A DNA stretch of 48,133 bases from Craspedostauros australis (GCA_030167865.1 JALAGF010004004.1:1-48133); one strand, 5' to 3'; counted from the stretch's first letter, positions 8,979 through 43,091 are shown. Made by a program: numbers and translations. The notes: generated by a model not told the origin, from the letters alone.

Positions 8979-11900
8979 CTACCAATTCTTGAGAACCGCA
9001 TCATCCACTGTTTCGCGGATGAGCTTCCACTTGACGTCGAAGTTCCCGGGCACGCCGCTCTTTTGCATGCCACCGATCAACTCGGCCATGGAATGCACGC
9101 GGCGTGACAACAAATCGTGCTCCAGCTTCGTCTTCAGGTCCCACAGCGCGTTGCAGATCTTTGGCCATCGGGAGATGGTCACCCCGTCCGAAATCAGGCT
9201 GCTGCACAGGAACAGGGCCTTGGCCACGTCCTTTCGCAATATCTCCTCCTGCTCGGTCATTGTCGATGCGTCTTCAGTGTCGTTGTGGAATCTGCGGATC
9301 CACAACAAGGAGAGCATCTCGCGCACGCGGTCTCGCTTCATGGGTGTCTTGGGGAAGAATCCGTGTGATCGATTCGTGTACACCTCCACGTCTTCTCCGG
9401 AATCGTTGGCGGATCGGATCAGGGCGAGGATGCGCCGTTCTTCGCTGGGGTCGAGCTCCAACAGCATCTCGTGCAAGGCTCTGGACCCTGACAGCAGGAC
9501 GTCCCGCCCGTTCTCCGTCATGTCCAGATTCTCGTCCATCAGGATGAGCATCTTGCACTCGGGGTCTTCGTTGAGGAGTCGTTTCACCGTGCCGCCGAAA
9601 CCACGGATTTCCTGTGAAGTTTTGCCCAGCAGGAGGCAGTGGTCCTTCGGAACGCCTGCATTTTCGAAGAGCTTGCCCAGCAGCTTGCGTTGGATCAGGG
9701 AGTCGTCGACAGCTATGGCCCACGTGCCCTCCGGCACAGTGAAGTTGCTTGGCTTGCCCCACGGCCGCAGGGTATCGTCCAGCTCCGTGAACTCTTTGCT
9801 CGGGCATCGGAAAGTGAATGTCGTGTGATCGGAGGAAAAGGAGATCGAGCACTCCCCCTTCAACGTCTTCGCACATTTGTTCATGATCCATGCGCCATCC
9901 CCAGACGAAACGATCGGCTTTCCCATCTGCAGCTCGGCATGCAGCCTTCTCCCCTGTTTGAAGACCCCCTCGGTCGCCTCTGGACCCATTGACACGAGCT
10001 CGTCGTGGCTGGGACCTGGCAGATTGCTCACCTGCAGCAAGAATTCCTGCGTTTCTCTGTCGAAGCTCACGCTCGTCGTCACGAGGCCGCCCTCCTGGCC
10101 GTACTTGCAGGCATTCGACACGGCGTTCCTGTGGATGTATTTCAGCAGCTGGGAGTCCAGAAGAAAGAAGCTGTTCTCATCAGAATTGTTCACGACCTTG
10201 AATCTGTTCGATGAGCCCCCATCGATGACCGATGTCTCGAGCGTGTGCATGACGTTGAGGCGCTCCAGCTTGGGACGGTACACGCCATGAATGACATCAC
10301 GCGCCATGGCCTCGGCCATGACTGTGTCGAGGATCTCATGCAACACCCAATCCATTTCATCGATTCTCTTGTTGAAGAGCCCAAATGGAGGTTTGGACAA
10401 CGAGGACTCCGTCGTTGACGTGCCGTCGACTTCTGGCAGTTTTAGGTTCGCCCCGGATTCGCTCAGCCGTGCTTGGTTCAGGCTGCTTTTGAGACAGTCA
10501 CACAGCTCGATGCCTGCCAGCAATCCGTTCTTTACCTCGTGCCTCGTGAAGCGGTTCACGGCCTGGGCGTCCTTCTGGCGCGCCTGCGATTCCATGACAG
10601 CCCTTTGTTCCGCTTCGCCGAGTAGGTACCTGTGCGTTGGCGCCATTGCGAATTCGTTCAAATGCCGAAGATTACGAGAGAGGTGCACACGCATGCAATA
10701 TGAGCAACGAGGAGGGCACGCGAGGCAAAATTCCAAGTTTGGAGTGAGCGAATGGGCGAGTGGGTGAATGGATGGATGAACGAATGAGTTCATCGCTGGC
10801 TTTCTGCAAGCACGCACGTATCGGAACACGCACGAGCGGATGTCTGCCAAGCATACAGTTATTAATACGAAAAGAAGCAGGGTTGCAACACCAGCAGGTA
10901 CTCACTGTTCCGTGTTGTCCCGAACAATGCCAATGACCGCATCCTCAGTATCCTGAGTGATCTTGATCTCGCATTTCGCCATCCTACGTGAGTACGTGAT
11001 GACATCGTGCAGGACTGTCGGAGAGCCACTCTTCCACTGCCATGTGGCGTTAATGATCTCCATGGCCTCCACCACGAGGTGTTCCTTGAGGTCCACCTTG
11101 ACCGTGTCCTTGATGCCGTGCTCGTCGAAAGGGACGGCCATGCTGACGAAGTACGCCTTCATGGCGACGAGTGTCTTGGCCGGTCGCATTGGCTTGTCCT
11201 CCCCTATCGTTGATTCGTCGTTCCTGCCTGGCTTCAGCTGCTGCTGCTCCTCCTGTTCTTGTTGGGAGAGCACGGTCGTTTCGATCACCAGTGCGGAGCG
11301 GGCCTTGGTTTCAGAGAATCCAATGAGGTTGAGGAATGTCGGCGAGATCATGGTGGACACCTGGTTCGGTCCGCTGGCAACCGAGATGACGATGCTGTCA
11401 GATGATGACTCCCAAAGGACGTGGAGCATATGCCGCAGCTCCTGCAGACGCCGACGGACCTGGCCGCCAGCATCGAAGACCGCGTTGTGGACTGTGTCGA
11501 TGATCTTCATGTAGACTATCTTGGCGGCAAGGTCGAAGAGGGTGTCGGAAATCATGGCGAGGCCATCAACTCGCCATGGATGGCCCGGTTCCGCCACGAG
11601 GTGAATGACCATATTGACGAAGTAAACGACGACAAGGAAGGTCCAAAAGAATCCGCAGAAGAAAACGAGGCGGAAGGAGAAGATAAGTCGGTCCTCGATC
11701 TCGTTGCTGCGGGCGTTTTGGTTCTGCGAAGCGCGGAAGCGCTGCAATCGTCTCCATCGGAACCAAATGCGCGGGAAGATGAGAAAGTACGTGACGCATG
11801 AAATGGTCATGACGACGACCCAGCTGAACAAATCGGGGCACATCGGAAGGAAGAGTCCGCAGATGGCCGAAGTGAACTGGAGGAAGGCGCTCGTGTACTG

Positions 11901-13388
11901 CCCGCGACGTTGGCGGGGATCCGCGGAGAGATCGACCGTTTCGGAGAGTAGCGTCATGAAGCCCGCCAACGGCCCCCACTCGCACCATCTGGTGAGGTAG
12001 ACCCTCGAGTTGGTCACCCTATCGAACATGACCACTGTGGGACCGAAGGCCATGATGCCGTTGGTGCACATGGCGATGGTCTGAACTGTGATGGCCGCGA
12101 CCAGGATCCCCGAAACCTGCTTCATCGGCATCCCGACGAAATACGGAATGACGGTGAGCAGAATGGCAATGAAGAGCGAGCAGAAGGCGAACATGACCGC
12201 GCTCTGCTCCTTGCCTTCGAGGTAGACGATGCTTTCCGGGGCAGCCGTGCTGTACACCGTCACCAACAGGATCAACCAGAGACATACAGTAGCCATGGCG
12301 ACCTTGATCACCAGGTCCGAAACCGCATCTGGCGGCAGCAGGTCGTTGCTCACTTCTTCACTGTCTTCACCGCTGCTCATTTGCCGCGATTGCTTCTGCT
12401 TCTGCTTCTGTTGGTGCTCGTTCTTATGCTTTCCTTGGACTTTAACAGATTGTCCCACCAAGGCGTCGGTGTCCTTGTCGGTGACCGTGTCAGCATCAGT
12501 GTCTGCATCAGTGTTGGTACCATCGCGAGCGCCCTTGCCAGCATCAGCATCAGAACCCATTGTCGTGGCGATATTCGCGCCACTGTCTCCCATTCCCTTT
12601 TCTGGTGATTGCGTTGCGCCTGATCGCGTTGTGCCGGATGTATCTTTTGTATCTCTTTCACCTCCTGAGGCTGCCGTCGAGCTCTGCGGGTCGCTGGATA
12701 AGGACGCAAACAGCTTCCCCATGGTGGTAGCAGCAACAGCAGTTGCTCCTGGGAGTAGTTCTATTGGCCTTGGATCGGTCGTGCTGCTGTTGGTTGTGTC
12801 GATCACATGGACGCTGGCGTCAGCTTCAGATTTGAAATCTCTGTCCTCTTCTGCGGACGAATTGTGTGCCTTGGGAGAGTTGGGGATTCGCACTGCGCGA
12901 GTATCGATAGTACTGGTACTGGCAGTGGCGCCGTACACCCTTCCTGTCGGCTGTGGTGGCGGGCTTTCTTGCTCGCCGTTTCGTGTTTCTGTCTGCCCTG
13001 TTGCTTCTGGTTGTCTTTTCGATTCTGTCCGTGTCTGGCCATCGTCGGTCATCACCTCATTTTTGTTGAAGCTGTGCGCACCTTCATCTGAGAGTTCATC
13101 TTCGTCGGTGCTGATCTCAGTGGACGAGACTGATGACGATGCGGACTTGAGCTGCTGCTCATGTTGCTTCTGCGATTGCGTTTGCTCATGTGTGCCATAC
13201 TGACCTTCGGCGTGCGTCTTGTTGGGATGGGCCTGTGCTGGCTTTCGTGTTGCATCTCCCGAGTCCCCAACATCGTTGGCATCGTCGCACAACGCTGTGG
13301 TCATGGGCATTCGCACGTGTCCGGTTTCCGTGCCATCCCTTTTTTCATCAGCACGAACGCCAGAGTTGCTGGCTTTGCTTCGCGTCAT
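8979..13388 (-). CDS. Rhodopsin-histidine kinase hybrid (disordered N-terminus, 8-TM type-1 rhodopsin-like domain, PAS-like segment, HisKA/HATPase, receiver, HPt-like tail). Two exons: 13388-10906 and 10629-8979; about 1,377 aa.
   Basis: ORFs 10902-13610 and 8979-10850 join in frame across the phase-2 intron 10905-10630 (GTGAGT...GCACAG), giving IVRDNTEQYLLGEAEQ. Rhodopsin helix C is RWCEW and helix G is DLAAK. Kinase: H-box RHEVKNGL, N-box RNAVSNACKYG. Receiver: VDDS...MDENL...RSAN...PK. Confidence 0.88.
10630..10905 (-). other. Spliceosomal intron (276 nt) of the rhodopsin-histidine kinase gene
   Basis: Minus-strand GTGAGT donor and GCACAG acceptor. Removing it restores one frame across the PAS-to-kinase junction. 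Confidence 0.8.
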
Positions 13389-14939
13389 CTTGCATGTATC
13401 GGTGGGCTGAGTCTGTTGTCGTTGTCGTTGTCTCTGCCGTTGCTTTGTTTTTATGTTGATGGTGTTGCGGAGTTCCCGGTGTTGTACTGGTATCGACTGG
13501 TGAACAGCGCACACACTCTGGCTCATGTGTGTTGTGTTTGAGAGGCGTATTCGTTCGTTTTCGCAAGTGCGCACGAGTCCAGGACTCTCTCTGGAGAGAG
13601 TCGAACACAACAGTACTCTGGAGAAACTGATTCGGCGCCAGTCGCTGCGTATCAGGAGCCGCCACCTACGTGTCTCGCACGCGATAAATCATTGTTCCGT
13701 CGAAATGGACCGAGCGATGTGAGCGACGCGTACGAGATACAGCACTTTTTCTGTCTCTGCGAAACCAACATCGTCGCCTTCCAAGCGTAATTGCCTTCTA
13801 TTTCCACCGCGCGGCATCGCCTTTCGCTCAACTCTTAAACGACGTTGGAAAGGGAGAGCCCGTATTCCATGCGCTCTGCCTCTGTTGAAGCTTGTCGAGA
13901 CACAAAGACCCCGGCGGATAAGTGCAGCAGCACTAAATTCTTCATGACGTCGCCATTGATTAAATACAAACCGCGATCTGGAAACGAAATCGAACAGCAA
14001 AACGAACCTCCGCTGGAAGGTCGTTTATGCACAACTGGCTCGGAAAGAAAGAAGCGCACAGTGTTGCGTTCTTCCGGCTGACACTATTCGCGAGGAATGG
14101 GTGCCAAGAACTTCATTGGTGAAGAACGAAGCCCCATGTTCTGCGCAGCAATAAAAACACACTTTCAGCGCTCTCCGAGTGGATTCGGCGTATCTCTGAT
14201 TCTCCCCTGATGTCCACAAGAGTACTTAACGGGAGATTCTCCGGCGATCAAACTTCTGTGGGACATCGCCACTATGATACTATACAGAATGTACTCCATC
14301 AGTACTATCGACACGATATCTTCTTGACGAATCAACTCATGCACAAAGACACATGACCACACTCTGCAGGAGCAGGTTGAGATGTGATGCGATGCTGCTT
14401 GATGCAAGATGGAGAGTGCGGCAATCATCTCGATCCGCTCTGCTCTATTCTTCAATGCAACGATCACTCGTCCAACAGCAATGTGAGTATGGTATAGAAC
14501 AAAACAAAAGAGAATCACGCAAGACAACTTGAGAAGATGTTTCAACTTCGTTCATGTGTGCTGGTCTTTGGTCTCTCGGTGCATTTGTGAATCACTCAAG
14601 GAAGTCTTATATATGATATGTGCATGGCGTTCCAGCAGCGGAACTATCTCGCGCAAGCGCAGACGTTCGTTCCGTTGAGGAACATCAGCGTGCTTGCGAT
14701 TTTGCACGTCCTCACTCCCTTCTGCACAAGAAACGCCTTCGCTGTTACTCGCTTGTACGCACCGCATCAGTACGATGATACACGATGGAGTAGGGCGGGT
14801 CAGGCGTTTTCATGTGGTCCCTCATCTGACGAAGCGAGGGATGGCACAGGCGTTGTTGCTTTCGTTGTCAGTGCGCTGCCACGAGCATGCATGTTGAGCA
14901 TGTTGTGCTCTGCTCTACTCTACTCTACTCTACTCTACC

Positions 14940-15368: not shown

Positions 15369-16216
15369 CTTGCCCTGTGTCTCTTTGTCGTATTTTAAGT
15401 AATATTTAGAATAGTATAGAATGAGGGAATATGTAGGGAGGAGGTTCAGGACTGGTCGTTTGCAAAGTAGTTGTGGCCGTCTTTGGAGTGATGGTTGTGA
15501 TGGTGGCCTCTCGTCCCTTGCCTCGATGTGATGATCTTGTGCCTCCGTCGCGTTCTTCTTCAAACGAAACCAAGCGAAAGGATTCGACAACGCATCCTTC
15601 TCCCTGTGGAGAAGTTGGATACGAACACCCAGGACTTGATTGTCTCGCAGTCGTGAAGCGATTAGCACGATTGGATGATTTTGACACGACTCCACATTTC
15701 GAAGTCCGAGCCGTTACTTGAAAGATAACGGAAGTTGCGCGTGCCGGTTGGCAGATCCACAACGAGATTTTCGTGTGATGGGCTCTGTGTGGCAACTGAT
15801 GCAGGGGTCGCAATGCAACGGACACGAAACGCATCTCGTCTGAGTTGTCTCCGAGATTTCTCATCCGTCTCCTTCCCATCTGCCTTGCCTCTTATTCTAC
15901 TTGTTTGCTGTGTGCCTGCCAGCCTTCGTATCGATGTCGACAACAGTGCAGAGCAGGTTGCGAGCCCTCTGCATCCAGGTTGCTGATGCTGTCGTCTGAC
16001 ATGATAGGAGTATCCTCAAAATCACTCACTCGCTCACTCACTCAATCCTCAACAACTGCCATCCAATGAAGCTGAAGCCAGAGCGAAGAGAAACAACGCA
16101 GAAGCCACCCATCAATCGATCAGCACATCAACACTTCAACGCATCAACAGATCAGTTGTTGGAGCAGCGAAACGACGGGGGTATTGAAAGAAGATACTCG
16201 TGAAGACGAGAGGATC

Positions 16217-18952
16217 ATGCAAGCCACCTACACGGCAATGAAATCACGACGGATCCACCGAGAGAGGACCAAGCACTCTAAAGGACTGCCATTGTCGTCG
16301 TCGTCGTCGTCGGTATCATCAACATCGTTCACTGCAAGATGGTTCTTCTCGTTGGTCATTATGGCCGTCATCCGAATGTCCATGACGACGTACTGGTTGA
16401 TGCTGGAAGAGCATATTCCTGATTCCGCTGGTCTCCATCACGACCACGATGTGCACTTACATCAGCAGCTTCAATCAGATGACAGAACCAATGGCAATAA
16501 CAGGAGGAAGCTGTTGTCGACGCCACCACGCAGGCCTCAACCACAACAAGCTCCAGTGGCGGCATATCCGCACGAGTACCCGTACGCACACGACCAACCG
16601 GAACTTCGTGAGACGAAGACGGATGTGCAACCGAAAGACATTCAGATATCAAGATCCGTCATCCACCTTCAGAATGCCACGACAGCAGTATCACCGTTTC
16701 GTCGCAACGCGCGGGTACTCATCACGAACGTGTTGGAAGATCCATTGGGGATCGAACTGGTGTCTGTATTGATCGATCGACACGGCGTCACCAATGTCTT
16801 CGGCGTCACTGATCACTGCGTCCGGCTGGGAGCGCCCACGAGATTGGCATACCTGCATCAACATCATCCGTCCTTCCGGTTGTTCCCAGCTAAGTCTCCC
16901 ATGACTGTGCACGAATGGCGGTCAATTCTTGACAGCACCAGACCAACACACATTATACATCTTGACGGCATGCAGAATTCGATCACTGCAACACACGACG
17001 ACCATGATCTGATCTTCCCCCACCGGGCCAGCTTGGACTTTTTAGACGTGATGGCGAAGGCAATTCTGCAGCTGCGAACACAGCGAAAGAACAAGCGTCC
17101 GAGCGTGAAGATTCTTCACGTCACGACTGAAGATGGGAACGTTCCGTTATTCAACCGGACGGCGCAGCTCTACCTTCCTTCCCTGCATTCCATGCTTCGG
17201 TCGGTGTATCGTTTGAATGTCATGCAACTGCTATTGCCACAGGTGATCGGTCCATTTTCTGGAGCTAACGATATTATTGCAGATACACTATTACTGAGAG
17301 GAGATGGTGCACCAACAGCTTCGTCCCACAAGGACCCGATGCAGCTGATATCAGTGCGAAATGCTACAGATGAGATTCTGCAGTTTCATTCCGCCAATGT
17401 TGGCTTGGTGCAGTCTCGACGACGGGCATCAATGGTGCGAACGTCAGCGGGTGGATCGGAGCTCACGGTTGCGGTTCCTAGACAATCCAATATCGTTTCA
17501 CAGCAGGAGTTATCGGTTGCCTGGCAAGATGCAGCAACATACGCTAACGTTGATCCTCCACGGCACTTCGATGTGCTTTCCAGCATCATCGTACAGCATG
17601 AAGAGCAAGGCAATGCATTTGCAAGGGCCGGCAACACAAATGGGCTCAATGATCCATCGCGCAACACTAGCACAACCTCCATTCTGGACCATGCCATTCG
17701 AGACGTCAAACAACGACTGCATTCGGGCGAAGTTCAGGGCACTCCGTTGACGTGGAGGCGACGCCATGGCTTGTTTCCGTGCGCATCAGAATGCTCCGCA
17801 TCGTACCAATGTCACACGGACACTGTGTTCGACCAACGTGTCATGGAGACCAGTCGCAACAGCACGCAGGACTGTCGCTTCGTTCTGTACATCAGCGACT
17901 TCTCGCATGATCTCGACAGCCTTCCGGTCATGTCGAACGGCACTCGGCAGGTGCCGATGCCACACAATGCAGTCTGCCAGATCGCATATGTGAACGAAGA
18001 CAGCCCATTGTTCCAGTCGCTGATAGGTGAACGTGATGGCGTTGACAGCGATCCAGCCATGCACAATGGGTGGACCGTGATATCTGTTTCGTCCAATGCG
18101 CCAACTGCACCCACCGACGCATCTAATGCGCCGCACGGCATGTCGGAAGCTGATCTGCTCCTGCCGAAGATCTCACCTGGCACTCTGTTCGCAGCACGTG
18201 TTGAGAAGGCCATGTACTTCGAGCCATCGTTGTACGACGCATTCCCCTCGTTGCCTGTCATATACTACCTGATGGCCAAACGACTCGATGCACCTGCAAA
18301 GGAAGCCAAATGGATTCGTCCATCACCCACGGTCAGCAAGGAAGCAGCGACGAGACGCCATCAGAATGGTCGCGTATGGCAAGATGCCGCTCCACAACGC
18401 CACGTGATGCTGTTCGTCCACACGCATCGAGAGTTCGCATCGCATCCGTTGCACGCACCCGGCAAGTTCGATCGCATGGCCAAGTACGTGCTGCAACAAC
18501 GTGGCATGGAGGATCAAGTGGCTGCGCTGTGGCCACGACGACAGCTCGAGTACTACCATGAGCTGTGGGAACTCTCGGATCGCACTATGAGATTTGGATT
18601 GCTGGATACCTCGTTGCTGATTCATAATCTTCGCTCGAGCCGCAGCCGGCAGCTGCGTTGCGAATGGTATGAAGAGCACATCGCGTGGCGGGGCAACGGC
18701 CGAAGTCATGATGAGGACGGTTCTTCCTTTCATGGTTTCGAAGATCTGAGCCTGTCCATGATCCGGGCCAAATGGAGGTTGGAGGGACGGCTGGTGCCCC
18801 AGTATGACGATTGGGGAGACTTGTTTGCCACAACATCGAAGACGAAGAACCATGAACCGACGACGGCGGAGAAGCAGGGCTTCCTCCGATCGCACGCTGC
18901 GCCGAAGGGACGCAAGGAGTTTGGTGGTGGTTGGACCATTCGGGAGGAATAG
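16217..18952 (+). CDS. Type II membrane protein: highly degenerate SDR/epimerase-like region plus DUF616-like domain; paralogue of 5460-8444
   Basis: N-terminal anchor WFFSLVIMAVIRMSMTTYWLML and RVLITN without the GxxGxxG motif. Shares ordered blocks with 5460-8444: FPCASEC/FPCSSEC, CRFVLY/CKTVLY, LDSLP/LESLP, CQIAYV/CNLAFV, LPKISPG/LPKLSPG, YFEP/FIEP, LLDTS/LLDSR, LRCEW/FRCDV. The start codon could be 16217 or 16238. Confidence 0.78.
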   Translation: MQATYTAMKSRRIHRERTKHSKGLPLSSSSSSVSSTSFTARWFFSLVIMAVIRMSMTTYWLMLEEHIPDSAGLHHDHDVHLHQQLQSDDRTNGNNRRKLLSTPPRRPQPQQAPVAAYPHEYPYAHDQPELRETKTDVQPKDIQISRSVIHLQNATTAVSPFRRNARVLITNVLEDPLGIELVSVLIDRHGVTNVFGVTDHCVRLGAPTRLAYLHQHHPSFRLFPAKSPMTVHEWRSILDSTRPTHIIHLDGMQNSITATHDDHDLIFPHRASLDFLDVMAKAILQLRTQRKNKRPSVKILHVTTEDGNVPLFNRTAQLYLPSLHSMLRSVYRLNVMQLLLPQVIGPFSGANDIIADTLLLRGDGAPTASSHKDPMQLISVRNATDEILQFHSANVGLVQSRRRASMVRTSAGGSELTVAVPRQSNIVSQQELSVAWQDAATYANVDPPRHFDVLSSIIVQHEEQGNAFARAGNTNGLNDPSRNTSTTSILDHAIRDVKQRLHSGEVQGTPLTWRRRHGLFPCASECSASYQCHTDTVFDQRVMETSRNSTQDCRFVLYISDFSHDLDSLPVMSNGTRQVPMPHNAVCQIAYVNEDSPLFQSLIGERDGVDSDPAMHNGWTVISVSSNAPTAPTDASNAPHGMSEADLLLPKISPGTLFAARVEKAMYFEPSLYDAFPSLPVIYYLMAKRLDAPAKEAKWIRPSPTVSKEAATRRHQNGRVWQDAAPQRHVMLFVHTHREFASHPLHAPGKFDRMAKYVLQQRGMEDQVAALWPRRQLEYYHELWELSDRTMRFGLLDTSLLIHNLRSSRSRQLRCEWYEEHIAWRGNGRSHDEDGSSFHGFEDLSLSMIRAKWRLEGRLVPQYDDWGDLFATTSKTKNHEPTTAEKQGFLRSHAAPKGRKEFGGGWTIREE

Positions 18953-21699: not shown

Positions 21700-23034
21700 T
21701 TAGGCGCTGGTGCGATTCCATGCCTGCGGCTGGTTCTTGGTGGTGGTGGCCATGACGCCGAGGGTTGGAACACCATCCGTTGATGTCGATTTGATGGGCG
21801 CCATGTCCGTCTTGTTGGAGACCCAATTTCTCCACGTATCCCGGAGCGAGGTGTTGAGCACGCCGCCCATGCTGTATCCCGGCGCAATCCGGGCGATTCG
21901 AGCAGAGACGACGGGTGCGAAGTTCTTGGCCAAGGCTGCGCCGCGATCCCTCATCGCGGAGGCGAAGGGCTTGTGATCCAGATTGCGGTTGTAGAGATCG
22001 AGGCCGATGAAGTGGAGCGGTCCAGCGAGGACCTGGGTGACGATGGGAATGGATACCTGGGTCATCTTCTTGACGTCTTCGTTGCTGGATGGATCGGAGA
22101 TGGCGTTGGCAACGAGGTCAGGCAGGACGAAGGCGGAGCCGATGACCGAAAAGTCGCGGACCAGCCACAGGGCGTAGGTGGTGCGCGGGATGGCGTTCTT
22201 GGCCGCCGAGGCAGAGCCGAACATCTTGGCGTAGGCGCGGTCCTTGGTGATGGAGGTGGCCGTGTTGGTCAGGGCGGTGCCGAGGAGGACGCTGTAGGGG
22301 CCGGCGAAGATGGAGAGCAGCGCGTTGCCGAACTGCGTGGTGGGTTCGTAGGTGCGTCTGCGCACCAGTCGCTTCGTGGTGGTGGTCTGCGTCCTAGTGA
22401 CCTTGGTGAAGTCGTGCTCGCCGATGGTCTTGAGGGAGTTGGCGGCGCTGTAGGTCGAGGTGTAGACCAGCCACATGTAGAAGAAGGTGGGGCTTCTCAA
22501 GTAGGCCACTGGTTGGCGCATCATGGCCTTGATGCTGGCGATTCCGGACTGCACCATGGTCTTGGTGCCTGCGGACTTCTCCACAATGGCCTTGTCCACG
22601 ATCGTGAGGAATGGAGCCACGCACAAGGCAACGGAGGCGCCGGTCAGGACATCGCCGACGATCTTGTGGCGCAGTTCCACGTTGGCGATGGCGATCGGGG
22701 CACTGCCGTTGGTGGAGCTGCTGTTGTCGCCGCCGGTGCGATACCTCATGGTATCAGCAGAATTGGCGGCGGCTGTGGCTGCGGCTGCGGCGGCCACGGA
22801 TGACTGCGTGGGATGGCCGCTGATGATGTGCGCCGCTGTGGCCATCACGGTCGGGCGATTCGTCTGGTCGGAGCCTGCAGTCATGGTGGATTGTGTGTTG
22901 TGGGGGTCTGAATTTGTGAGGAGGGAGTGTTGGTGTGAAGCACGGCCATTCGTCTGTGTGGCTGGAGACATTGCAATTGCAGCCACGGCAGGAGTGTTCT
23001 GATGAGAATCTGTTGATGGGCCTTTTACTGTCAT
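21700..23034 (-). CDS. Multi-pass membrane protein, possibly a divergent mitochondrial-carrier-like family member
   Basis: Strong coding bias and several hydrophobic helices. Px[x]xx[DE][KR]-type segments (APFLTIVDK, PLHFIGLD) and a C-terminal ARIARIAPGYSMGG that recalls carrier helix 6. The family assignment is tentative. Confidence 0.65.
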   Translation of the reverse strand: MTVKGPSTDSHQNTPAVAAIAMSPATQTNGRASHQHSLLTNSDPHNTQSTMTAGSDQTNRPTVMATAAHIISGHPTQSSVAAAAAATAAANSADTMRYRTGGDNSSSTNGSAPIAIANVELRHKIVGDVLTGASVALCVAPFLTIVDKAIVEKSAGTKTMVQSGIASIKAMMRQPVAYLRSPTFFYMWLVYTSTYSAANSLKTIGEHDFTKVTRTQTTTTKRLVRRRTYEPTTQFGNALLSIFAGPYSVLLGTALTNTATSITKDRAYAKMFGSASAAKNAIPRTTYALWLVRDFSVIGSAFVLPDLVANAISDPSSNEDVKKMTQVSIPIVTQVLAGPLHFIGLDLYNRNLDHKPFASAMRDRGAALAKNFAPVVSARIARIAPGYSMGGVLNTSLRDTWRNWVSNKTDMAPIKSTSTDGVPTLGVMATTTKNQPQAWNRTSA

Positions 23035-25417
23035 TTTTTGTTCCTTTTTCCTCTTCAGCGCTTTTCTCCGTGTTGCACTTTCGTTCGTTCGCCTCTTGCT
23101 CGAGTTTTTGGCCTTTCTGCTACAAGTGTTCTTTAGTTGTTCGGGTGCGTTTTGTGATGTTTGCGTGGTTCGATTGGATTGTGAGCAAGAAAACAAGCGA
23201 CGTGCAACGAAGCAATGGCGCAACGGCGCAGTGATGCAGATTCTATGGTCAGAGTGGTCGCTTGTTTCATGGAGGTGTCGTGATGATCCTCGTCGGCACT
23301 GTCACAATGTGCGAGTGGTGTGATTGATGCCATCCCAAGTGATTCGATGCTTCCCCACCTGTTCCAAGGAAGTGATTGCCCTGATTGCCCCTGATGTCCA
23401 GCGTCGCCGTTCGTGCTGTTGCTGGTGGAGTCGAGGGCGAATGTGAAGGTAATCGTGGGACGGGTACGGATGTGGCTGAGTTGGTTCACCGCGTGTCCCT
23501 TGGCAAGAACCCTTCCTCCCGCGTTTCGCCCAGAAATGCCACAAAATGTGATGGCGATTGTACCCCTCACGCACGCAAAATGTGCGTGTTTGCAATCATG
23601 TGGGACTGTCGTGCCGGAGTGCGAAAAAGTCGGGAAGCGGAGTTTCCTGTCGGACTGCCTGTCTCCTTGTCTGTGTGAGCGTTGCGCGGCGCGATGACGA
23701 GAATTAATTCCACGTTTCTTCGCATTTTCGCATCGTCGAGAATCATCGCCTTTGGTGTTTGCGACGAATGGTTCCGTGGTGGTGGTGAGCGATCGTGGAC
23801 CTATCAGAATTCGAACACGAACGGCTTCGCGGAGATTCCTCGAACGTGTTCCAATCGCTCTCAAACCCATCCGTCATCAGGCCACGTTGCGAACTTCCAG
23901 CACAGAAAACGCCTTTTAATGTCGCACCGCGTCAAAGAACCAACCAATTTCCGCATTTGCATCAGCCGGCCAAGAACGTGTGCCAACTTCCAGCAAAACA
24001 CGTGAAGGTCGGGAGCACAATGTGACGCGTTGCTCGTTCTGCGCGCCTGTGACGCCGAACAGATTTTGCACTTGAGGAGTTCGTGTTGGTAGTCCGTACG
24101 TATGGACGCACACGAGTGTGGCTGAGGAATTCTCAACTGTGTTAGTGGCGGTAGTCGTGGTGGTGTCTGAGAGCAATTCCTCGACCCTGTTCTATTTCGC
24201 GCTTTGCGCCGAGTCGAATCTAAATGTAATCATACAACGTCGATGCTCGACTCCTGCTTTACGAGCTACGTATTTCATAATAGGTCGTACTCGAGCACAG
24301 AGTAAATCTTCGTCTCGCTCATTTCTCCCGTCTATTACTGCATGCTGCTCTCCACACTCTACGGGACTGCTCATCCGCAACAGTGAGCCAATGGACGTGG
24401 GTGGACGACATTGTCGACCGAGCAAGATCCGTGACGGCGCGAGAGATGATGATGGTTTGGGTGTTTCTGTGTTGCTCCACGTCCCCTGGCTTTGGACCAA
24501 CCACACCAACTCAACATCATCGAGATTCTTCCGAACCCGTCGAAGTCGCGCTGTCGACAAAAACCAAAGCAGGTGATGGGATTCCCTCCCTCCTTCAGAT
24601 TTGAGACGAGTGGCACATCTTTCCACTCTTGTGCGCCGCCTTGGTCATGGTCGATGCCGCGGACCCTTGGAGGTGTCGCTTGGATCATCTTGCAAACACG
24701 AAAACTATCGAGATTGCTTGCGTGTCTGTGATCTGCGTGTCTCCATCCCCGCGCGTGTTGCTGGCATATCTGTGCAGCGGACTCTAGCTTGCATAGTATA
24801 GCCTCTGTAAATCTTCTTGTGGATTTCGGGAAGGGCGAAAAAAGGCGATGGAACAGAGGCGATGCATTCGCCATCGCGTCATGACATGTCACAGGTTGCG
24901 TCACATCGTGTCGCATCACGTCACATCACATCACATCACATCACATCAACATGTTGTGGTTGCTGTCAGCCACCCACAAGAGGACGATGGGCCAACACCC
25001 GCGCAAGCCAAAATACCAAGGCCAGAGCATCACCATCAACATGAAAGACAGCATACAATTACTCTTGTGAGCAACAACATCAACATCAGACATCAACATC
25101 ACACGTTGAGGATGCGGATCAAGAGAGGGGCGTGACGATCGAAGGTTGACACCAAACACGATCCAGGAAACAATCATCATTGGTGTCGGCGCTGGCATCT
25201 ATGCTGGCATCAAGAGAAAGAGAAAGAGGGAAGGATCAACATCAAATCAACGTCACACCCTTCAACAGGAGAACAAAAACATCAACATCAACATCAATCT
25301 CGACAGCAACCTCAATCGTTGGCATCATTGACAGCGTTGGCATCACCACTGACAACGACGACGACGACGACAACGATTCATCAACGATTCATCAACGATT
25401 CATCAACGTACCATACG

Positions 25418-31241: not shown

Positions 31242-33221
31242 TCAGTAATCATCTAATCCGTACGGGTCAAAATCATCCAAATTCTCATCTTCAAATCGTG
31301 CGAACATGGAACTGCTCGAGGCTGTCACGGGTCGGCTGCCAACCATAATGTCATCATCATCGTCGTCGTCGTCATCATCACCACCACCGGGGTTCAGGTT
31401 CGTCATCATGCGGGCGTTGCTCGATGGATCTTCGTCACCGTAAAGCAGATCAAACAAGTCTCGTCGTTCCTCGCGTAATCGATCCACGCTGCCATCGGGC
31501 TCCTTTTTCTTCTTCTTTTTCTTGGCCGCAGCCTTCTTCCGAGGTCTGGATTTTTTGGCGGCGACCACCAATTCGGGGGATGCGCCGGCGCCATTTACTT
31601 CAATCTCCGTCGGTGCTGCTGGTTTGGCCTTGCGAGCCGTTTTCTTCTTGCGCACCCTCTTTCGTTTGTTGGCGGCAGCACCGTTCGGTGACACCGACGT
31701 CGCTCCTGCTGCGCGCTGGGCCACCTCCATCGGCGTGATAGCATTGACGAGGGTGATGACCTTCTTCTTTTTCTTTTTCATCTTCTTCATCTTCTTCCTT
31801 TTTTTCTTGGCAACACTGCGCTTCTTTCGTGGCACCTTTGGTCGCATGAGGCCGAGACGCCTCTGTTCCTCTTGGTGCTTCGAGATGGCATCCAGGGTCT
31901 TTTGTCGGTAATCCTTGTCCTGCCACTTGGCCTTCATGGCGTTGGAGATCTTCTGACGATGCGCAGCTGAAGTTCCTCCACTTGGAGCCCGCGCCGACAT
32001 CTTCTCCATCATCTTGGCGCGGAATTCCGGGTCCTCCCATTTCTTCTTGAGGGTGTTCGATATCTTCTTGCGAATCTCAGGGGTGGTGTTCGACACTACC
32101 GTTTTGTTCTGCATCAACTCTCGGTATTCGGTATCGGTCTTCCATTTGTTGCGCAGCGCTTCCGCTATTTTCTGCTTGGTCTCGGCGGTGTGCGTGAAAC
32201 CGCGGCGGATCTTGCTTGGGTCGACCGGTTTGCGCTTGATCTCCCCGTTGGCGTGCTTTTCCTTGAGGATTTTGGAAATCTTTTGCTTCGTCTCCTCCGT
32301 GGGTCGGTACCCACCCTTGGCGGTCCGTCTGGCACGGCGTTCGGCATCCTTTCGCCTTCGATCCTCCTTCTTTTTGATCTCGTACTCCTCCTCCGTGAGG
32401 CCCAGATCCTCGAGCTTCTTGAGGAATCGTTCGCGGTTGCGCGCACGCACGCCCGCGGCAATCCTTGCCTTCGTCTCTTCGCTGCGGCCCTTTCCCTTGT
32501 TCCACGGGACCTTGCCTTTGTTGGCCGCGCTGATTTTGGCCCTGCTGGCGTTGGTGTGGGAGAAACCCCCGTTTTCCGTCGGACGTGGAATGTCTTCAAT
32601 GTCCGGAATGTTGGATGGCGCAATCTGATCCATGATGCCGCCATCGAGAGATTGGCGTTTCGCCGCCACGTCGGAAGTGTCCGCGGTGTCATGTTTGCCG
32701 TTGATGGAGCTACCGTTGATGGAGCTACCATTCATGGAGCCACCATTGACGGAATCACCGCTGGTGGCCTCGGTTCCTCCCTGCTCCATTTGCGGTGAAT
32801 CCAGATAGGTGGTGTCCAAGCCCGCGCTGTCGAACAGCCTGGTCTGATACGCCGATCTGTATGCAGCGAAAGACGACGACGGCGACAACGGCGACAACGA
32901 TGATGCTGATATTGGCGCTACTGCCGAAGCAGAGGAGGGAGTTCCTATCCGTTGGAAGGCCCAGCACTGGATGTTGCTGGCGCTGTCCCTTCTGCAGAAG
33001 TAGGTGCCTCCATTGCCCCGCAGTTTCGGCTTCCACAACGAAAGCGCCCTTCCGCTGTTGAGGGAGAATGTGGAGACCAAGGGAACGGTGCAAAGCAGGA
33101 GCAGCAGCGAAGTGGTGGCATCCGGCAGGCGTCGTTTCTGGCGCCTCTCACGACGGCAATTGCGCCGAACCGGTTCTGTGGATTCCGAGGAAGACATCGC
33201 GCCCAATTGACTTTGCCTCAT
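31242..33221 (-). CDS. NUMOD3-repeat basic protein, probably plastid-targeted
   Basis: Hydrophobic LLLLLCTVPLVST-F (ASAFAP-like cleavage) followed by a Ser-rich transit-like region. NUMOD3-type repeats: HTNASRAKISAANKGKVPWNKG, RSEETKARIA, PTEETKQKIS, HTAETKQKIA, TPEIRKKIS, SAAHRQKIS. Confidence 0.8.
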   Translation of the reverse strand: MRQSQLGAMSSSESTEPVRRNCRRERRQKRRLPDATTSLLLLLCTVPLVSTFSLNSGRALSLWKPKLRGNGGTYFCRRDSASNIQCWAFQRIGTPSSASAVAPISASSLSPLSPSSSFAAYRSAYQTRLFDSAGLDTTYLDSPQMEQGGTEATSGDSVNGGSMNGSSINGSSINGKHDTADTSDVAAKRQSLDGGIMDQIAPSNIPDIEDIPRPTENGGFSHTNASRAKISAANKGKVPWNKGKGRSEETKARIAAGVRARNRERFLKKLEDLGLTEEEYEIKKKEDRRRKDAERRARRTAKGGYRPTEETKQKISKILKEKHANGEIKRKPVDPSKIRRGFTHTAETKQKIAEALRNKWKTDTEYRELMQNKTVVSNTTPEIRKKISNTLKKKWEDPEFRAKMMEKMSARAPSGGTSAAHRQKISNAMKAKWQDKDYRQKTLDAISKHQEEQRRLGLMRPKVPRKKRSVAKKKRKKMKKMKKKKKKVITLVNAITPMEVAQRAAGATSVSPNGAAANKRKRVRKKKTARKAKPAAPTEIEVNGAGASPELVVAAKKSRPRKKAAAKKKKKKKEPDGSVDRLREERRDLFDLLYGDEDPSSNARMMTNLNPGGGDDDDDDDDDDIMVGSRPVTASSSSMFARFEDENLDDFDPYGLDDY

Positions 33222-34451
33222 GGTGGAGTGGCAATAGGAGGCTGCGTGGCTGCTCCAATCGGTGCTTCGGTCTGTGCTCGATTTGATGTTGGCAGTGGAA
33301 TCGTGATTGTATTGGTATTCAGGATGGGAAAGTCGATGGCCGCGATGCGATGCTGTGGTGATGGTCTGCCTTGTCTATCCTTGCCTTTCCTTGCCTTTCC
33401 TTGCCTGGCTCCACGTGTTCTTTGATTGCCGGAGAGGGTTCCTTCTTGCTTGGTTTCTTGCTGTCTTGGCTGCTTGCTGTCTGGCTTCTTTTGTTCCTTG
33501 TTTCTTTCGCAGCTCGGTTGATTGGCTCGCACCACCGCAGCGCACTCACTGCCAACTGATCGGGACTTCGATTGAGTCGGAGAGGTGGAGCTCTATCGTC
33601 CAAGAACGATGACAGCGACGATGACAACGGCAATGAGAATAATGAAGCAAGGTCCCGGCACAGAAACCAGAGTAATGGTGGATCGCGTTGCCTGGCGTCG
33701 TCTTCTTTCGTGGCCACACCTTCTTGGTCTGATTTGGGATGAATCAGATCGTCTGTCTCTCTGTCTCCATTTTTGCGCGCGAGGGGCACACCAAAACTTG
33801 ATGGCATCTGCTCCTCCACGCAAGGTGGGTACGGGCACCTCTCGCATTACTCCGTGTTGTTCTGGGCCTTTGATGGGTTCTGAGGCTCGTTGTCTTGCCC
33901 TCACTGTTTTCGTCCGAAGAATTTCGGATGGTGAGCGTGTGACGCAGTTTGATTCGTTTGTTTCATTAGCACACGCACCAAATCATGAATAGGGCGATGG
34001 CGGCAGCGACTTTGGGTCGGACTATTCGGAAGTGGAGGCATCTTGTTTCGCGAAGTTCGTGTTCCACAAAAATAGCAAAAGGCGAACGCAACGATCGACA
34101 ACACGGGAAGGAAACACGAACGAGGCGCCACGAACAAATTCCACAAAACCATGGCGAGACACGGAGATGTGATGGCGGCATGGTGGAGCTGTTCTGATGG
34201 CTATCGTACATGTACTATGCACCATGCTCCATGGGAGCAGAAAGAAAAGGAACTCACAAGAACGACAACAACAAACAAGGAAACGAGAGAGAGACGCCCA
34301 CACGCCCGACAAAGCAATTGCGAGAGCGGGAGAGATAGCGATCTAAGGACAAGCGGCAAAGTGAAAATTTGATCCAAAGGAGGAGCGGCTGGCTGCGGGT
34401 GGGCGTCGTCGTAGGAGATCACTGCGTCTCGCAGGAATAAGAACGCAAACG

Positions 34452-35767: not shown

Positions 35768-36412
35768 GGCAGCAGCAGCATTAGTACTTAGTGTGCTATC
35801 TGAACTCTCGTGTGCCATGCGCCTTCGGAGCATTCACCACTCTAGTTCTCTCCGAGTGCTCAAGTGCGCCCCTGAAATGTCAGCTCCAACTAACCGAATG
35901 GAAAGTAACTGACTGATGTGATCGATAGTAAAATTCATGTTAATATAAACGTGGCAATCCTGTTCAATGCACACGTGTGCAATTCATTGGTCTTCGCGCA
36001 TTTCTTTCCTTCCTTCATTCGTTCTGTCGTCCTCTCTTTCTCCATCCCAATAGCATGCTTCCACCAATCTCCACTATCGTATGTAGCTATCATCATGGTC
36101 GCCATCGCCCTTGCGTTCGTTGCCGTGCTTGCAGTCGATATTGTCGCCAATAGCATCGGTGAGGCCAGCAGCACCCGCAACACCAGAAGAAGTAGCAGTA
36201 ACAGTAACAGTAGCAGTAGCAGCGACAACCACGACGGCGATACCACCATCGTCGTCATCCTGTACAACACAGCGGATCGCCAAATCTGCGATCCATCACC
36301 CTTGCGCAACACGAATCGACCGTACCTCGTTCCGGACAAGGCTGCGATGTGTTTCCGATCCGTGCTGCACAATGCCGGTTTGATTCCGCCATCCACGCGG
36401 TCATCAAGGCAT

Positions 36413-38765
36413 TTAGTTGTACTTCTTGAGCGATTGGAGGAGATCGGCACTGACCTCCTCCTTTGGAAGGACGCGTCCACCAGTTGGCTTTCCGTCGACG
36501 ACTCCCAATCCATTGGTGGCGGCGGCAGCATCAGCAGCTGGAGCAGCAGCTGGGGCGGGGGCGGCAACCTTCTCTGCAGCAGCCTTCTCATCTGCGGCCT
36601 TGTCGGCAGCTACCTTCTCTGCAGCAGCCTTCTCATCTGCGGCCTTGTCGGCAGCAGCCTTTTCATCAGCGGCCTTCTTCTCGGCAGCAGCCTTATCAGC
36701 AGCCTTCTCCTCAGCAGCAGCCTTCTCTTCAGCGGCGGCCTTCTTTGCGGCAATCTTCTCTTCCTCTGCCTTGACGCGTGCGGCCTCCTTCTCGGCCTTG
36801 ACCTTTTCAGCCTCGGCCTTGTCAGCGGCCTTCTGCTCCTCAGCCGCCTTCTTCTCGGCTGCTCGGGCCTTCTCTTCCGCGGCATCAGCCTCGGCCTTTG
36901 CCTTAGCTTCAGCAGCCTTTGCCTTCTTCTCGTCCTCAGCGGCGGCCTTAGCCTTGGCTTCTGCCTCGGCCTTTGCCTTCTCGTCCTTGGCCTTGGCCGC
37001 CTCCTTCTCTGCCTTGACTCTCTCGGCAGTGGCCTTGGCTTCGGCTTCAGCGGCCTTGGTCTCCTTGTCGGCGGCTTCCTTGGCGGCCTCATCGGCCTTC
37101 TTGGCAGCCACGGCATCCGTCTTGGCTTCGGCGGCGGTCTTGGTGGCCTTCTTCTCGGCCTGCTTGACCTCAGCGGAGAGGTCGAGGTCGTATCCGCTGG
37201 TGTCCTTGAACTTCTTGACAGCCTTCTTCTCGACGACCTTGGTCACGGATGGTGCGGCAGTCTGGGTGGTCTTGGTGGCGGCCTTCTTGGCTGGGGCGGC
37301 CTTCTGGACGGCTGGCTTGGCGGATGGGGCTGGTGCCTCGATGTTGGAGAATGGAGACGAGACGATGAGTGCCACGGAAGCAAGGGCACCTCCCAAAAAT
37401 CCCTGTTGTATGTATGGATGCGTGTATGGATGTATGCAGGTGCGGGTGTTGTCATGTTCGTTGATGTGTGGGTGTAAGTGCGAGAGAATGGCGTTGTTGT
37501 TTGATGGGTCAGACGAGGACATGCCACACGAGCAGAGTAGTGACGTATCATAGTATCGTGCATTATGCATGACGTGGATAGATATCGGCGGTGATTTGGG
37601 ATGAATGAATGTTGGTAAGATGCAGAGGAATAAATGAGCAGATGAGGAAGCGATGTGTGTGAGAAAGCGCTCCTGCTTTGTGCATGAAAGAGAAGGACTG
37701 CGTATCTGCACACTCGCTCTGGATTCTGCAGTGTGGCCTTCGGAGCATCATCGTGTGATATGTGCATGTTGTAGGGTGGAAGAGATATTGCGAGATCCGC
37801 ATTTCATGTTGCATGCATCCTTGTGCTGCTCGTGTTCAATCCATTGTGACAACGTTCATCACTGATTATGACGGATCGAGGTTGCCGTTCGCATCGCTCA
37901 AATGATTCGTTTCAATCAACATCAAGTAGAGTATGGTCCAGCAGAGTACAAAAGTCACTGGTCGCAGAGTACGGCGTGACAAGAAGAGCAGGAACAGGCA
38001 TGCTCGCAGTGACATTGACAAGGACAATGGGGGAGAACGTACACCTGCGGTGAGGAGGCCGCCTCCATCAACCTCCGAATCTCTGATCTTCTTCTGCTTG
38101 GCAGCCTCGGCGATGGCGATCTCCTCCTGAATCTTCTCACGTCGGGCCTTCGTGTTGGCGAGAAGTCCACGTCCGGCAGTGAGGGCAACGATTGGAGCGG
38201 CGATCAGCGGCGCGGCTCCGAGGGCAATTCCGGCTGGGACGGCAGCGGCATCCTTCTGCACTGGGACGTCCTTCTTTGGCTCCTCCTTCTTTGGTTCACG
38301 GGCTGGCTTCTTCGCGACGACCCTCTTCTCCTTTGGAGCTGGCTTTGGCGCTGGGGCGGCCTTGGCCTTTGGCTCAGCTGGCACATCGAGGTCGTAGGCT
38401 CCCTTCTTTCCGGAGGACTTCTTCTTCGATGGCGCTGGGGCTGGAGTTGGCTCAGGGGTTGGCTCTGGAACAGGGGCCGGAGCTGGGGTTGGTTCTGGGA
38501 CCGGCTCTGGCACAGGCTCTGGCTTCGGCGCCTTTCTTCCCTTGCGCTCCTTCTTTGGCTCCGCCTCCTTGGAGCTTCCGAAGAATCCCTTCTTCTCCTC
38601 CTCCACTGGCTGTGGGGCGAAGAGCTTCTCCTCCAGCGAGCTGAACTCGTTGGTCTTGGCCTGCAGGGCGGCGACCTTGTGGCCCACGAAGGCCCTTGGG
38701 CTTGGCGCGAATGCGGACGCGAACGGAGCGATGGCAGCGATGACGGCAACTTGGGAGAACTTCAT
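36413..38765 (-). CDS. Plastid-targeted protein with Pro/Glu/Lys-rich linker, two hydrophobic helices and a long Ala/Lys/Glu coiled coil. Exons 38765-38043 and 37402-36413; about 570 aa.
   Basis: Exact bipartite presequence MKFSQVAVIAAIAPFASA-FAP. Phase-0 intron 38042-37403 (GTACGT...CAACAG) fuses GLLTAG to GFLGGALASVALIV, forming one hydrophobic helix. KAAAEK-type repeats in exon 2. Confidence 0.8.
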
Positions 38766-42161: not shown

Positions 42162-43091
42162 TGTGGAAGACTAGTTGCCGAGGGTGTTGATGCTGACGAT
42201 GCTGACGATGCTGCTGTTGGTGATGCTGTTGGTGTTGCTGCGGCTGATGATTGTGATTGTGCTGTTGCTGCTTTGTGAGGAAAGACTCATGGGTGCTCCG
42301 ACCCCCTTCACCCATCACACGCCGCACGACGTTGCATGGTGCCAAGAGCGAAGAGTCAAGGGACCCGGCGAGCCGAAGACTACTCCACCGACGAACAGCT
42401 TCAAGACAAGTGTGGAACACATCAAGCGTTCCACACATCACACACCATGCACACGCACGAGAAAAGAAGAGAGGAATGGGTGGATGGAAGAATGATAGAA
42501 GAACAGGAACATCACAACGCAACCCGCTGTCTTGGGCAAAGGGAACTCGATGGGGTGGAACGAAGGTGAAGAAAGCGTTCGAACGGAGGTCCGCATAATG
42601 TGAGCAACGTGTGCGTTTGAAATGACAGAATCGAGGTTAATCAATGCGCACACGTACGATTGTCGCACCGAGGTTCTTTTCCGAACTACGACATGGCACA
42701 GTGCCTGAAAAGAACATCTGAAAGCGCCCAAAATCGACCCAATCGATTCAATCCGCCCTTGTTGGCAGTCGTGTGCAAAGTTGTGTTGTGGCGCACCTTT
42801 GCGAAAATTTCCCAACGCTCGTGACCTGACTGAGCCCTGTTCGCACCTTCGAGGCAACCACGAAACAAGAAAATGTGCTGTTTCCGGTTCCGAGAAAGCC
42901 AAAAATGGAGAAAATGGTCAGCCGCGCAGCTACGTGCGCGCGAAGAGGCGGATGCGGCGAAGGATAATGTGAGAGGATGTTCAGGTGGCGGTTGGGGGCG
43001 AGAGTGTGAGTAGATGGGGGGATGGGCCCGAAACGGCCTTCGGAAGCACCTCCGCTGGAGAAAGTGCCTTCGAAGGCACACAAAAATCACT

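Follow-up and report, generated by a model that had tools for sequence, protein, structure and literature searches.

A candidate rhodopsin-histidine kinase photoreceptor with a PAS-like linker, a receiver and an HPt-like module in the diatom Craspedostauros australis

Histidine kinase rhodopsins (HKRs) and 2c-Cyclops of green algae combine an eight-transmembrane (8-TM) rhodopsin with a histidine kinase, a response regulator and, usually, a cyclase, and phosphotransfer in the 2c-Cyclops is inhibited by light, according to the available text of two reports (PMC6284317; 10.1101/2020.04.15.042127). In Cr2c-Cyclop1, the Schiff-base lysine K298 and the phosphorylated histidine H352 are 54 residues apart, as given in the accessible part of PMC6284317. 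Other rhodopsins joined to effectors include Rh-PDE of Salpingoeca rosetta (7cj3, 7d7q), an 8-TM protein with a phosphodiesterase output, and the bestrhodopsins (7pl9), which are rhodopsin-rhodopsin-bestrophin fusions with an ion channel output and no kinase. The bestrhodopsins stem from marine algae. Among two-component systems, the unorthodox hybrid kinases of the ArcB/BvgS type carry a histidine kinase, a receiver and an HPt domain in one chain. The subject of the present analysis is a gene on the minus strand of a 48,133-nt stretch of DNA (the window) from Craspedostauros australis (GCA_030167865.1, JALAGF010004004.1:1-48133), which an earlier note had described as encoding, in a probable diatom, a photoreceptor candidate with a rhodopsin, a PAS-like linker, a histidine kinase and a receiver on a single chain and no cyclase. 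The background of that note, namely that green-algal HKRs are 8-TM proteins ending in a cyclase, agrees with the available text of PMC6284317.

As diatom photoreceptors, the accessible parts of four reviews name phytochromes, cryptochromes and aureochromes; the diatom rhodopsins described there are proton pumps (PMC12558739, PMC13436692, PMC10627834, PMC12557545). Two of these reviews, as far as their available text goes, report HKRs from green algae or from algae generally and none from diatoms (PMC12558739, PMC13436692). Rhodopsin-histidine kinase transcripts were not detected in a survey of marine protist photoreceptors, according to the excerpt available (PMC8017926), and a survey of eukaryotic histidine kinases that included Fistulifera solaris required, in its accessible text, a Pfam match to HisKA, HATPase_c or REC (PMC6324907), criteria that the protein family described below largely fails. 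A network study of November 2026 lists 17 uncharacterised rhodopsin clusters, and no kinase-fused diatom cluster is described in the part of it that is available (PMC13739731); the Pfam model PF01036 is named in the detection methods of another rhodopsin survey, in the portion accessible (10.64898/2026.09.29.755320). No description of a diatom rhodopsin-kinase was found in the full-text literature, subscription-journal reviews lying outside that search, and the protein encoded in the window apparently represents a variant of the histidine-kinase rhodopsins with a new architecture, undescribed in diatoms.

The coding region at 8979..13388 (ATG 13388-13386, stop 8981-8979) yields after splicing, as computed by script from the window, a protein of 1,377 residues with one terminal stop, which is probably an enzymerhodopsin-type sensory photoreceptor contained in a single chain. 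The order rhodopsin, PAS-like domain, histidine kinase and receiver, without a cyclase, is borne out by collinear full-length homologues, two AlphaFold2 models, Foldseek comparisons and profile searches, and the positions given in the earlier note are all correct, including the codons of K623 (11520-11522), H858 (10539-10541) and D1193 (9534-9536). When 1.84 billion cluster representatives (clusters at 50% identity) were searched exhaustively by HMMER with residues 340-827, 344 relatives emerged at E<=1e-3; of these, 257 reached E<=1e-10 and 110 reached E<=1e-30, and the nearest was 45% identical to the window protein; a word-indexed protein search found one relative with the single sequence and five with a profile. 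Two alignments were drawn from these relatives, A1 (72 sequences, mean column identity 15%) and A2 (44 full-length sequences). The whole succession of transmembrane region, PAS-like, DHp, CA, receiver and HPt-like modules is present in 58 of 203 relatives, most of the others appearing to be truncated at the C-terminus, and the family is best described as carrying a rhodopsin, a PAS-like domain, a histidine kinase, a receiver and an HPt-like module on one chain. Pfam scans detected no cyclase family in the window protein or in 50 relatives.

Comparison with the HKR/2c-Cyclop proteins (Chlamydomonas COP5-COP12, Cr2c-Cyclop1, Vc2c-Cyclop1 and Ostreococcus Ot-HKR) was made through their published descriptions rather than their sequences, and no HKR structure occurred among the PDB matches. 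Common to both sides are an 8-TM type-Ib rhodopsin, DHp and CA domains and a receiver, with both termini cytosolic in the HKRs and predicted to be so here. The window protein differs by a PAS-like domain of about 170 residues between helix G and the kinase, with 235 residues from the predicted retinal lysine (K623) to the phosphoacceptor histidine (H858) against the 54 residues reported for Cr2c-Cyclop1; by a four-helix HPt-like bundle at the C-terminus in place of the cyclase of the 2c-Cyclops; by a rhodopsin core too divergent for PF01036; and by its lineage, which is that of diatoms rather than chlorophytes. The protein thus has the rhodopsin-kinase-response regulator order of the HKRs and lacks both the DHp directly following helix G and the cyclase, and by analogy its mechanism should resemble theirs.

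The rhodopsin domain occupies 11475..12332 (residues 353-638), where the eight hydrophobic helices reported earlier are seen both in a hydropathy scan and in an AlphaFold2 model (between about 12332 and about 11475). By residue, these are TM0 (353-381), A (392-417), B (427-448), C (465-484), D (491-516), E (520-553), F (559-598) and G (610-638), with a beta hairpin between B and C (451-464) that we take to resemble the one in bacteriorhodopsin, and helix G is continued by a cytoplasmic helix at 11406..11471 (residues 640-661). The model of residues 345-827, built from A1, has a pLDDT of 92.1 and a pTM of 0.84 and consists of eight long helices, the B-C hairpin, the helix leaving helix G and an alpha/beta domain. 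The AlphaFold and Foldseek check proposed in the earlier note therefore returned an 8-TM rhodopsin: Foldseek gave 50 PDB matches at E<=1e-3, those listed being microbial rhodopsins only, with TM-scores of 0.54-0.73 on target length, and the top match was Rh-PDE (7cj3_A, E 5.7e-5, TM-score 0.66 on target). Profile searches against the PDB point the same way. With the A1 profile, E-values were 6.9e-6 for bestrhodopsin (7pl9) and 9.1e-4 and 1.4e-3 for the Salpingoeca Rh-PDE; with the A2 profile these values became 1.3e-9 for bestrhodopsin, the top PDB hit by sequence profile, and 1.6e-6 and 2.5e-6 for Rh-PDE, followed by cruxrhodopsin-3 at 0.016 and by weaker haloarchaeal and sensory rhodopsins. 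Rh-PDE, at a sequence identity of 14-16%, is the best structural match and likewise has a cytoplasmic helix leaving helix G. The extra helix TM0, expected of an enzymerhodopsin, precedes helix A, and the profile alignments pair it with TM0 of Rh-PDE, a conserved tryptophan included. Loop charges obey the positive-inside rule for a topology with both N- and C-termini inside, and an ESM Atlas feature search, taken here as a lead only, returned Bac_rhodopsin clusters at 0.89, 0.88 and 0.86. On the models, residues 353-638 form an eight-helix microbial (type-1) rhodopsin fold.

Between the cytoplasmic helix and the kinase lies a plausible PAS-like alpha/beta domain (10917..11396, residues 665-824), delimited by the secondary structure of the AlphaFold2 model and by motif conservation. 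In almost all of 27 aligned sequences the domain closes with D-x-T/S-E, immediately ahead of the kinase helix, and this motif presumably matches the D-I/V-T-E junction to the signalling helix of PAS-kinase proteins. An ESM Atlas feature search with residues 655-827 returned PAS clusters at 0.95, at low counts of shared features (118-145), and the modelled linker has more strands than a minimal five-stranded PAS. No PAS match was obtained from Pfam for this protein or for the 50 relatives scanned, and among the Foldseek matches listed for residues 345-827, all of which fell on the rhodopsin part, there was no PAS domain. The PAS-like linker proposed earlier is plausible from its modelled fold and junction motif; no sequence library recognised it.

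The second exon encodes 549 residues, for which an AlphaFold2 model built from A2 (pLDDT 86.2) shows the DHp as a hairpin of two helices, followed by a CA domain of alpha/beta type, a receiver of (beta-alpha)5 fold, with strands and helices alternating over positions 303-447 of the model, and four C-terminal helices. Foldseek returned 249 matches to this model at E<=1e-3, headed by the hybrid kinase ShkA (6.9e-11), which contains a receiver and aligned over 454 columns, and by HK853. The DHp hairpin (10284..10628, residues 829-943) carries the H-box RFTRHEVKNG with H858; the CA domain, which is HATPase_c-like (9789..10271), has the N-box Asn1000 (10113-10115), Asn1030 (10023-10025) and a G2 box reading SSGDGAWI; and the receiver (9288..9731) has D1136, D1137, D1193, S1234 and K1255. 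The H-box, the N-box and the receiver with its acidic pair, phosphoacceptor aspartate and lysine, all of which the earlier note had picked out, are present and conserved in A2: H858 in 42 of 43 members, E859 in 43/43, the N-box Asn in 44/44, the F-box Phe in 43/44, the two G2 glycines in 44/44 and 43/44, the two aspartates of the pair in 43/44 and 44/44, D1193 in 42/44, and the receiver Ser and Lys each in 44/44. From sequence and model, the kinase is predicted to be a class-I-like histidine kinase.

The chain ends in a four-helix module of about 90 residues (8988..9254), with helices at positions 459-480, 488-504, 509-520 and 530-547 of the exon 2 model. In relatives its second helix bears the signature LHxLKGD, which we take to be the HPt pattern (an exposed His within HxxKG), with the His in 27 of 34 sequences (Q, R, F or L in the remaining seven), the Gly in 33 of 34 and the Asp in 32 of 35. 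At these three positions the window protein has W, T and K instead, the Trp being W1324 (9141-9143), and no other sequence shows W or T there. Pfam Hpt matched neither this protein nor any of the 50 relatives, and the A2 profile drew no HPt chain from the PDB at E<=10. Judged by sequence pattern and modelled fold, the family module is HPt-like and the copy in the window protein is degenerate. The earlier note was right that no cyclase stands at the C-terminal end, and had passed over this module and the loss of its signature histidine. The order of kinase, receiver and HPt-like module and, in most family members, the LHxLKGD signature are shared with the ArcB/BvgS type; the differences lie in the rhodopsin input, in an HPt-like module that goes unrecognised in Pfam and PDB sequence searches and, for the window protein, in the replacement of the HPt His by Trp.

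Several observations on the kinase and on library matches weigh against this reading. The library scan proposed in the earlier note came back without a match for Bac_rhodopsin, PAS, HisKA or Response_reg and with HATPase_c only below the cut-off, and HisKA and Response_reg were equally absent from the 50 relatives scanned. Sequence matches to the CA domain are limited to Pfam HATPase_c at E=1.3e-4, which is below the cut-off, and YycG at 1.9e-4; among the 50 relatives, 21 matched HATPase_c, 18 of those also below the Pfam cut-off. In the ATP lid, the residue equivalent to the adenine-contacting G1 Asp, Asn1030, which the earlier note had not remarked on, is Asn in 43 of the 44 A2 members and stands in N-x-P-G rather than D-x-G-x-G, an assignment that follows the profile alignment to YycG, the single-sequence alignment placing the non-conserved D1037 there instead. 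Replacement of the G1 Asp by Asn abolishes nucleotide binding in several GHKL ATPases, and ATP-dependent autophosphorylation is not assured here because this Asp is replaced; going by the sequence, the Asn may mean altered or other nucleotide use, or a kinase with weak ATP binding. The Asn and the low HATPase_c scores, together with the loss of the HPt His, Gly and Asp in the window paralogue, would suit a photoreceptor whose kinase is no ATP-driven autokinase, acting instead as a phosphatase, a scaffold or a kinase using another nucleotide, with output through binding by the receiver or the pseudo-HPt. We consider such a protein unlikely, as the His-Glu pair, the N-box Asn, the F-box Phe, the G2 box, the receiver Asp, Ser and Lys and, in 27 of 34 sequences, the HPt His are conserved together, and this joint conservation is what selection for a working phosphorelay predicts.

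Both motifs quoted in the earlier note are present in the translation, RWCEW in helix C (11976..11990; R467, W468, C469, E470, W471) and DLAAK in helix G (11520..11534), where D619 occupies the second counterion position and K623 is the predicted Schiff-base lysine. Their conservation goes beyond chance: in local alignments, K623 is found in 140 of 140 relatives, and its column is one of only four invariant columns in A1; an acidic residue stands at position 619 in 137/140 (94 with Asp, 43 with Glu); and in helix C the counts are 137/140 for R467, 132/140 for W468, 130/140 for E470 and 127/140 for W471. Of two further tryptophans, W523 is retained in 140/146 relatives and W582 in 147/148. In the AlphaFold2 model K623 is the 14th of the 29 residues of helix G. 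RWCEW is paired with RYAEW in Rh-PDE and with RYMEW in bestrhodopsin, both of which likewise have Glu at the first counterion position, and both rhodopsin repeats of bestrhodopsin align, with their helix C RYMEW and helix G DxxxK; the pairing of the DLAAK region with the bestrhodopsin MDVVMK falls in a weak part of the alignment. The Arg, the counterion and the Trp of helix C presumably correspond to R82, D85 and W86 in bacteriorhodopsin numbering. On this pattern, the presence of acidic residues at both counterion positions points to a Schiff base that is protonated, and K623, which would face the pocket, is predicted to bind retinal.

The membrane domain also has features that speak against this assignment. 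Helix C lacks the T/C-x-P pattern of bacteriorhodopsin, channelrhodopsin and Rh-PDE, its Pro lies two residues past the Trp rather than the five of characterised rhodopsins, and helix F reads W-T-x-L-V, with no Tyr-Pro after the conserved Trp, compared with W-x-x-Y-P in bacteriorhodopsin. A Pfam scan of both protein halves gave no Bac_rhodopsin (PF01036) match at E<=1; only one of the 50 scanned relatives (P0044) matched that model, at E 0.0029 and 17.5 bits against a cut-off of 24.6; and phmmer with exon 1 against the PDB found no rhodopsin, its only hit being a chance low-complexity match at E 7.2. The failure of PF01036 reflects the sensitivity of the model and does not exclude membership, because the family-profile searches against PDB rhodopsins are significant. 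The same failure, and the partial departure of helices C and F from the retinal-pocket pattern of characterised rhodopsins, could be read as signs of a rhodopsin fold that has no chromophore and instead reports a lipid, a small molecule, the membrane state or the voltage to the kinase; in the accessible text of a 2026 survey, 2 of 13 uncharacterised rhodopsin-fold clusters lack the Lys (PMC13739731), so that opsin folds devoid of retinal do occur. Such a sensor is improbable in our judgement: the lysine is invariant, sits in the middle of helix G and follows a conserved Asp/Glu by four residues, and the helix C Arg, Glu and Trp and the helix F Trp are 91-99% conserved, a combination that would be difficult to account for if no Schiff-base chromophore were present.

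The single-chain model depends on splicing. Two open reading frames, 10902..13688 and 8979..10901, stand in a common frame with a single TGA (10904-10902) between them. That TGA forms bases 2-4 of a 276-nt intron (10630..10905) which runs from the donor GTGAGT, beginning at 10905, to an acceptor ending in CACAG at 10630; it lies inside the consensus donor (G|TGA|GT), and it is the intron's sole in-frame stop. The intron length is divisible by three, and the frame is kept on its removal. Exon 1 (10906..13388) encodes residues 1-827 and two bases of the Gln codon 828, which the intron splits, and exon 2 (8979..10629) supplies the last base of that codon, residues 829-1377 and the stop. In all 26 relatives that span the junction it is gap-free in local alignment; in the full-length ones the match to exon 1 ends directly beside the beginning of that to exon 2, and some of the relatives are transcriptome assemblies (MMETSP entries). 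The canonical intron and the product of about 1,377 residues deduced in the earlier note are thus upheld by a stop that lies inside the donor and by collinear homologues; it is because these homologues run gap-free across the junction that a single chain is adopted here. That the in-frame stop is real, leaving two genes or a pseudogene (an 828-residue rhodopsin-PAS protein with a separate or dead kinase frame), might be argued from the genomic stop between both frames, but is scarcely credible and was rejected, given that the stop belongs to a consensus donor, that removal of the 276 nt restores gap-free collinearity with homologues partly derived from transcriptomes, and that the only start codon near the conserved H-box region of exon 2 lies inside the intron.

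Retention of the intron would place a stop one codon past exon 1 and give an 828-residue, kinase-less rhodopsin-PAS protein. As the main product this form was rejected, the junction being collinear with all 26 homologues; it may be a minor or regulated isoform. The N-terminal region (12333..13388, residues 1-352) is of low complexity by composition, and its length is not conserved, the transmembrane match in relatives beginning anywhere from residue 1 to about residue 740. An in-frame ATG in the same open frame, 46 codons upstream (13526-13524), may serve as an alternative start, and between both ATGs lies a short degenerate CAA/CGA-type repeat that reads QRQRQRQRQQ in the gene frame.

The gene structure, the fold, the domain order and the conserved catalytic residues follow from the analysis; the mechanism outlined next, from the binding of retinal and the dependence on light to the nucleotide used, the direction of regulation (activation or inhibition by light) and the partner downstream, is a proposal drawn from this anatomy. 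The protein would be an eight-helix type Ib rhodopsin with a cytosolic N-terminus that binds retinal through K623, with E470 and D619 as counterions. Light would isomerise the retinal and shift helices F and G, and the signal would travel along the extension of helix G (residues 640-661) to the PAS-like domain and then, via the conserved D-x-T-E junction, to the coiled-coil DHp of the class-I-like kinase, where it would change the autophosphorylation of H858 and phosphotransfer to D1193 of the attached receiver. In most family members the phosphoryl group could pass onward to the HPt-like His, which would make a full His-Asp-His relay in one chain. In the window paralogue the relay would stop at the receiver or employ a separate HPt protein, because the signature His is Trp1324, and its tail probably serves for docking or regulation as a pseudo-HPt.

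A look at 30 representative clusters of the family gave five relatives with organism names, from Nitzschia inconspicua, Fistulifera solaris, Entomoneis sp. CCMP467, Entomoneis paludosa and Cylindrotheca fusiformis, all of them raphid pennate diatoms (Bacillariophyceae/Bacillariophycidae), which is consistent with the diatom setting supposed in the earlier note. The relatives are annotated as 'hypothetical protein', 'Histidine kinase domain-containing protein' or 'signal transduction histidine kinase'. Nitzschia inconspicua is represented by three accessions, two of which (P0011 and P0159) have locus tags four apart (IV203_032359 and IV203_032363), suggesting local duplication of the family, and the third, an identical copy, lies at another locus. 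In the window itself, tblastn found no second copy of the gene. The neighbouring frames are eukaryotic and include a vacuolar sorting receptor, a choline kinase, a cyclophilin, a member of the triose-phosphate transporter family and Beclin. A 710-residue frame at 31242-33374(-) carries a NUMOD3 DNA-binding motif (E 1.2e-19) of homing-endonuclease-type proteins and is unexpected amid ordinary nuclear housekeeping genes. Four further long frames have no Pfam match at E<=0.001, namely 43014-48131(+) (1,706 residues, open-ended), 16076-18952(+) (958 residues), 21700-23301(-) (533 residues) and 35909-37477(+) (522 residues).

In its widest form, the proposal would be that of a large, unrecognised family of sensory rhodopsins in raphid pennate diatoms, with the window protein as its founding example: a single polypeptide would hold a complete light-gated His-Asp-His relay along with a PAS-like coupler and a non-canonical (Asn) nucleotide pocket, and could serve as the photoreceptor of photophobic and phototactic gliding in benthic diatoms, modulated by paralogues with a dead HPt, the window protein among them; this we regard as speculative and, in its entirety, doubtful. 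For protein engineering, a rhodopsin combined with a PAS-like module and a full phosphorelay would offer a new template for light-controlled two-component signalling. The family, with its 344 clusters, is invisible to PF01036, a model relied on in rhodopsin surveys as far as their available text describes. Diatoms account for a large share of ocean photosynthesis, and a family of sensory enzymerhodopsins would add a new input channel to their light sensing. To our knowledge, the photoreceptor of photomovement in raphid pennates is unknown, and the named members of the family, all from motile raphid pennates, would make it a candidate for that receptor.

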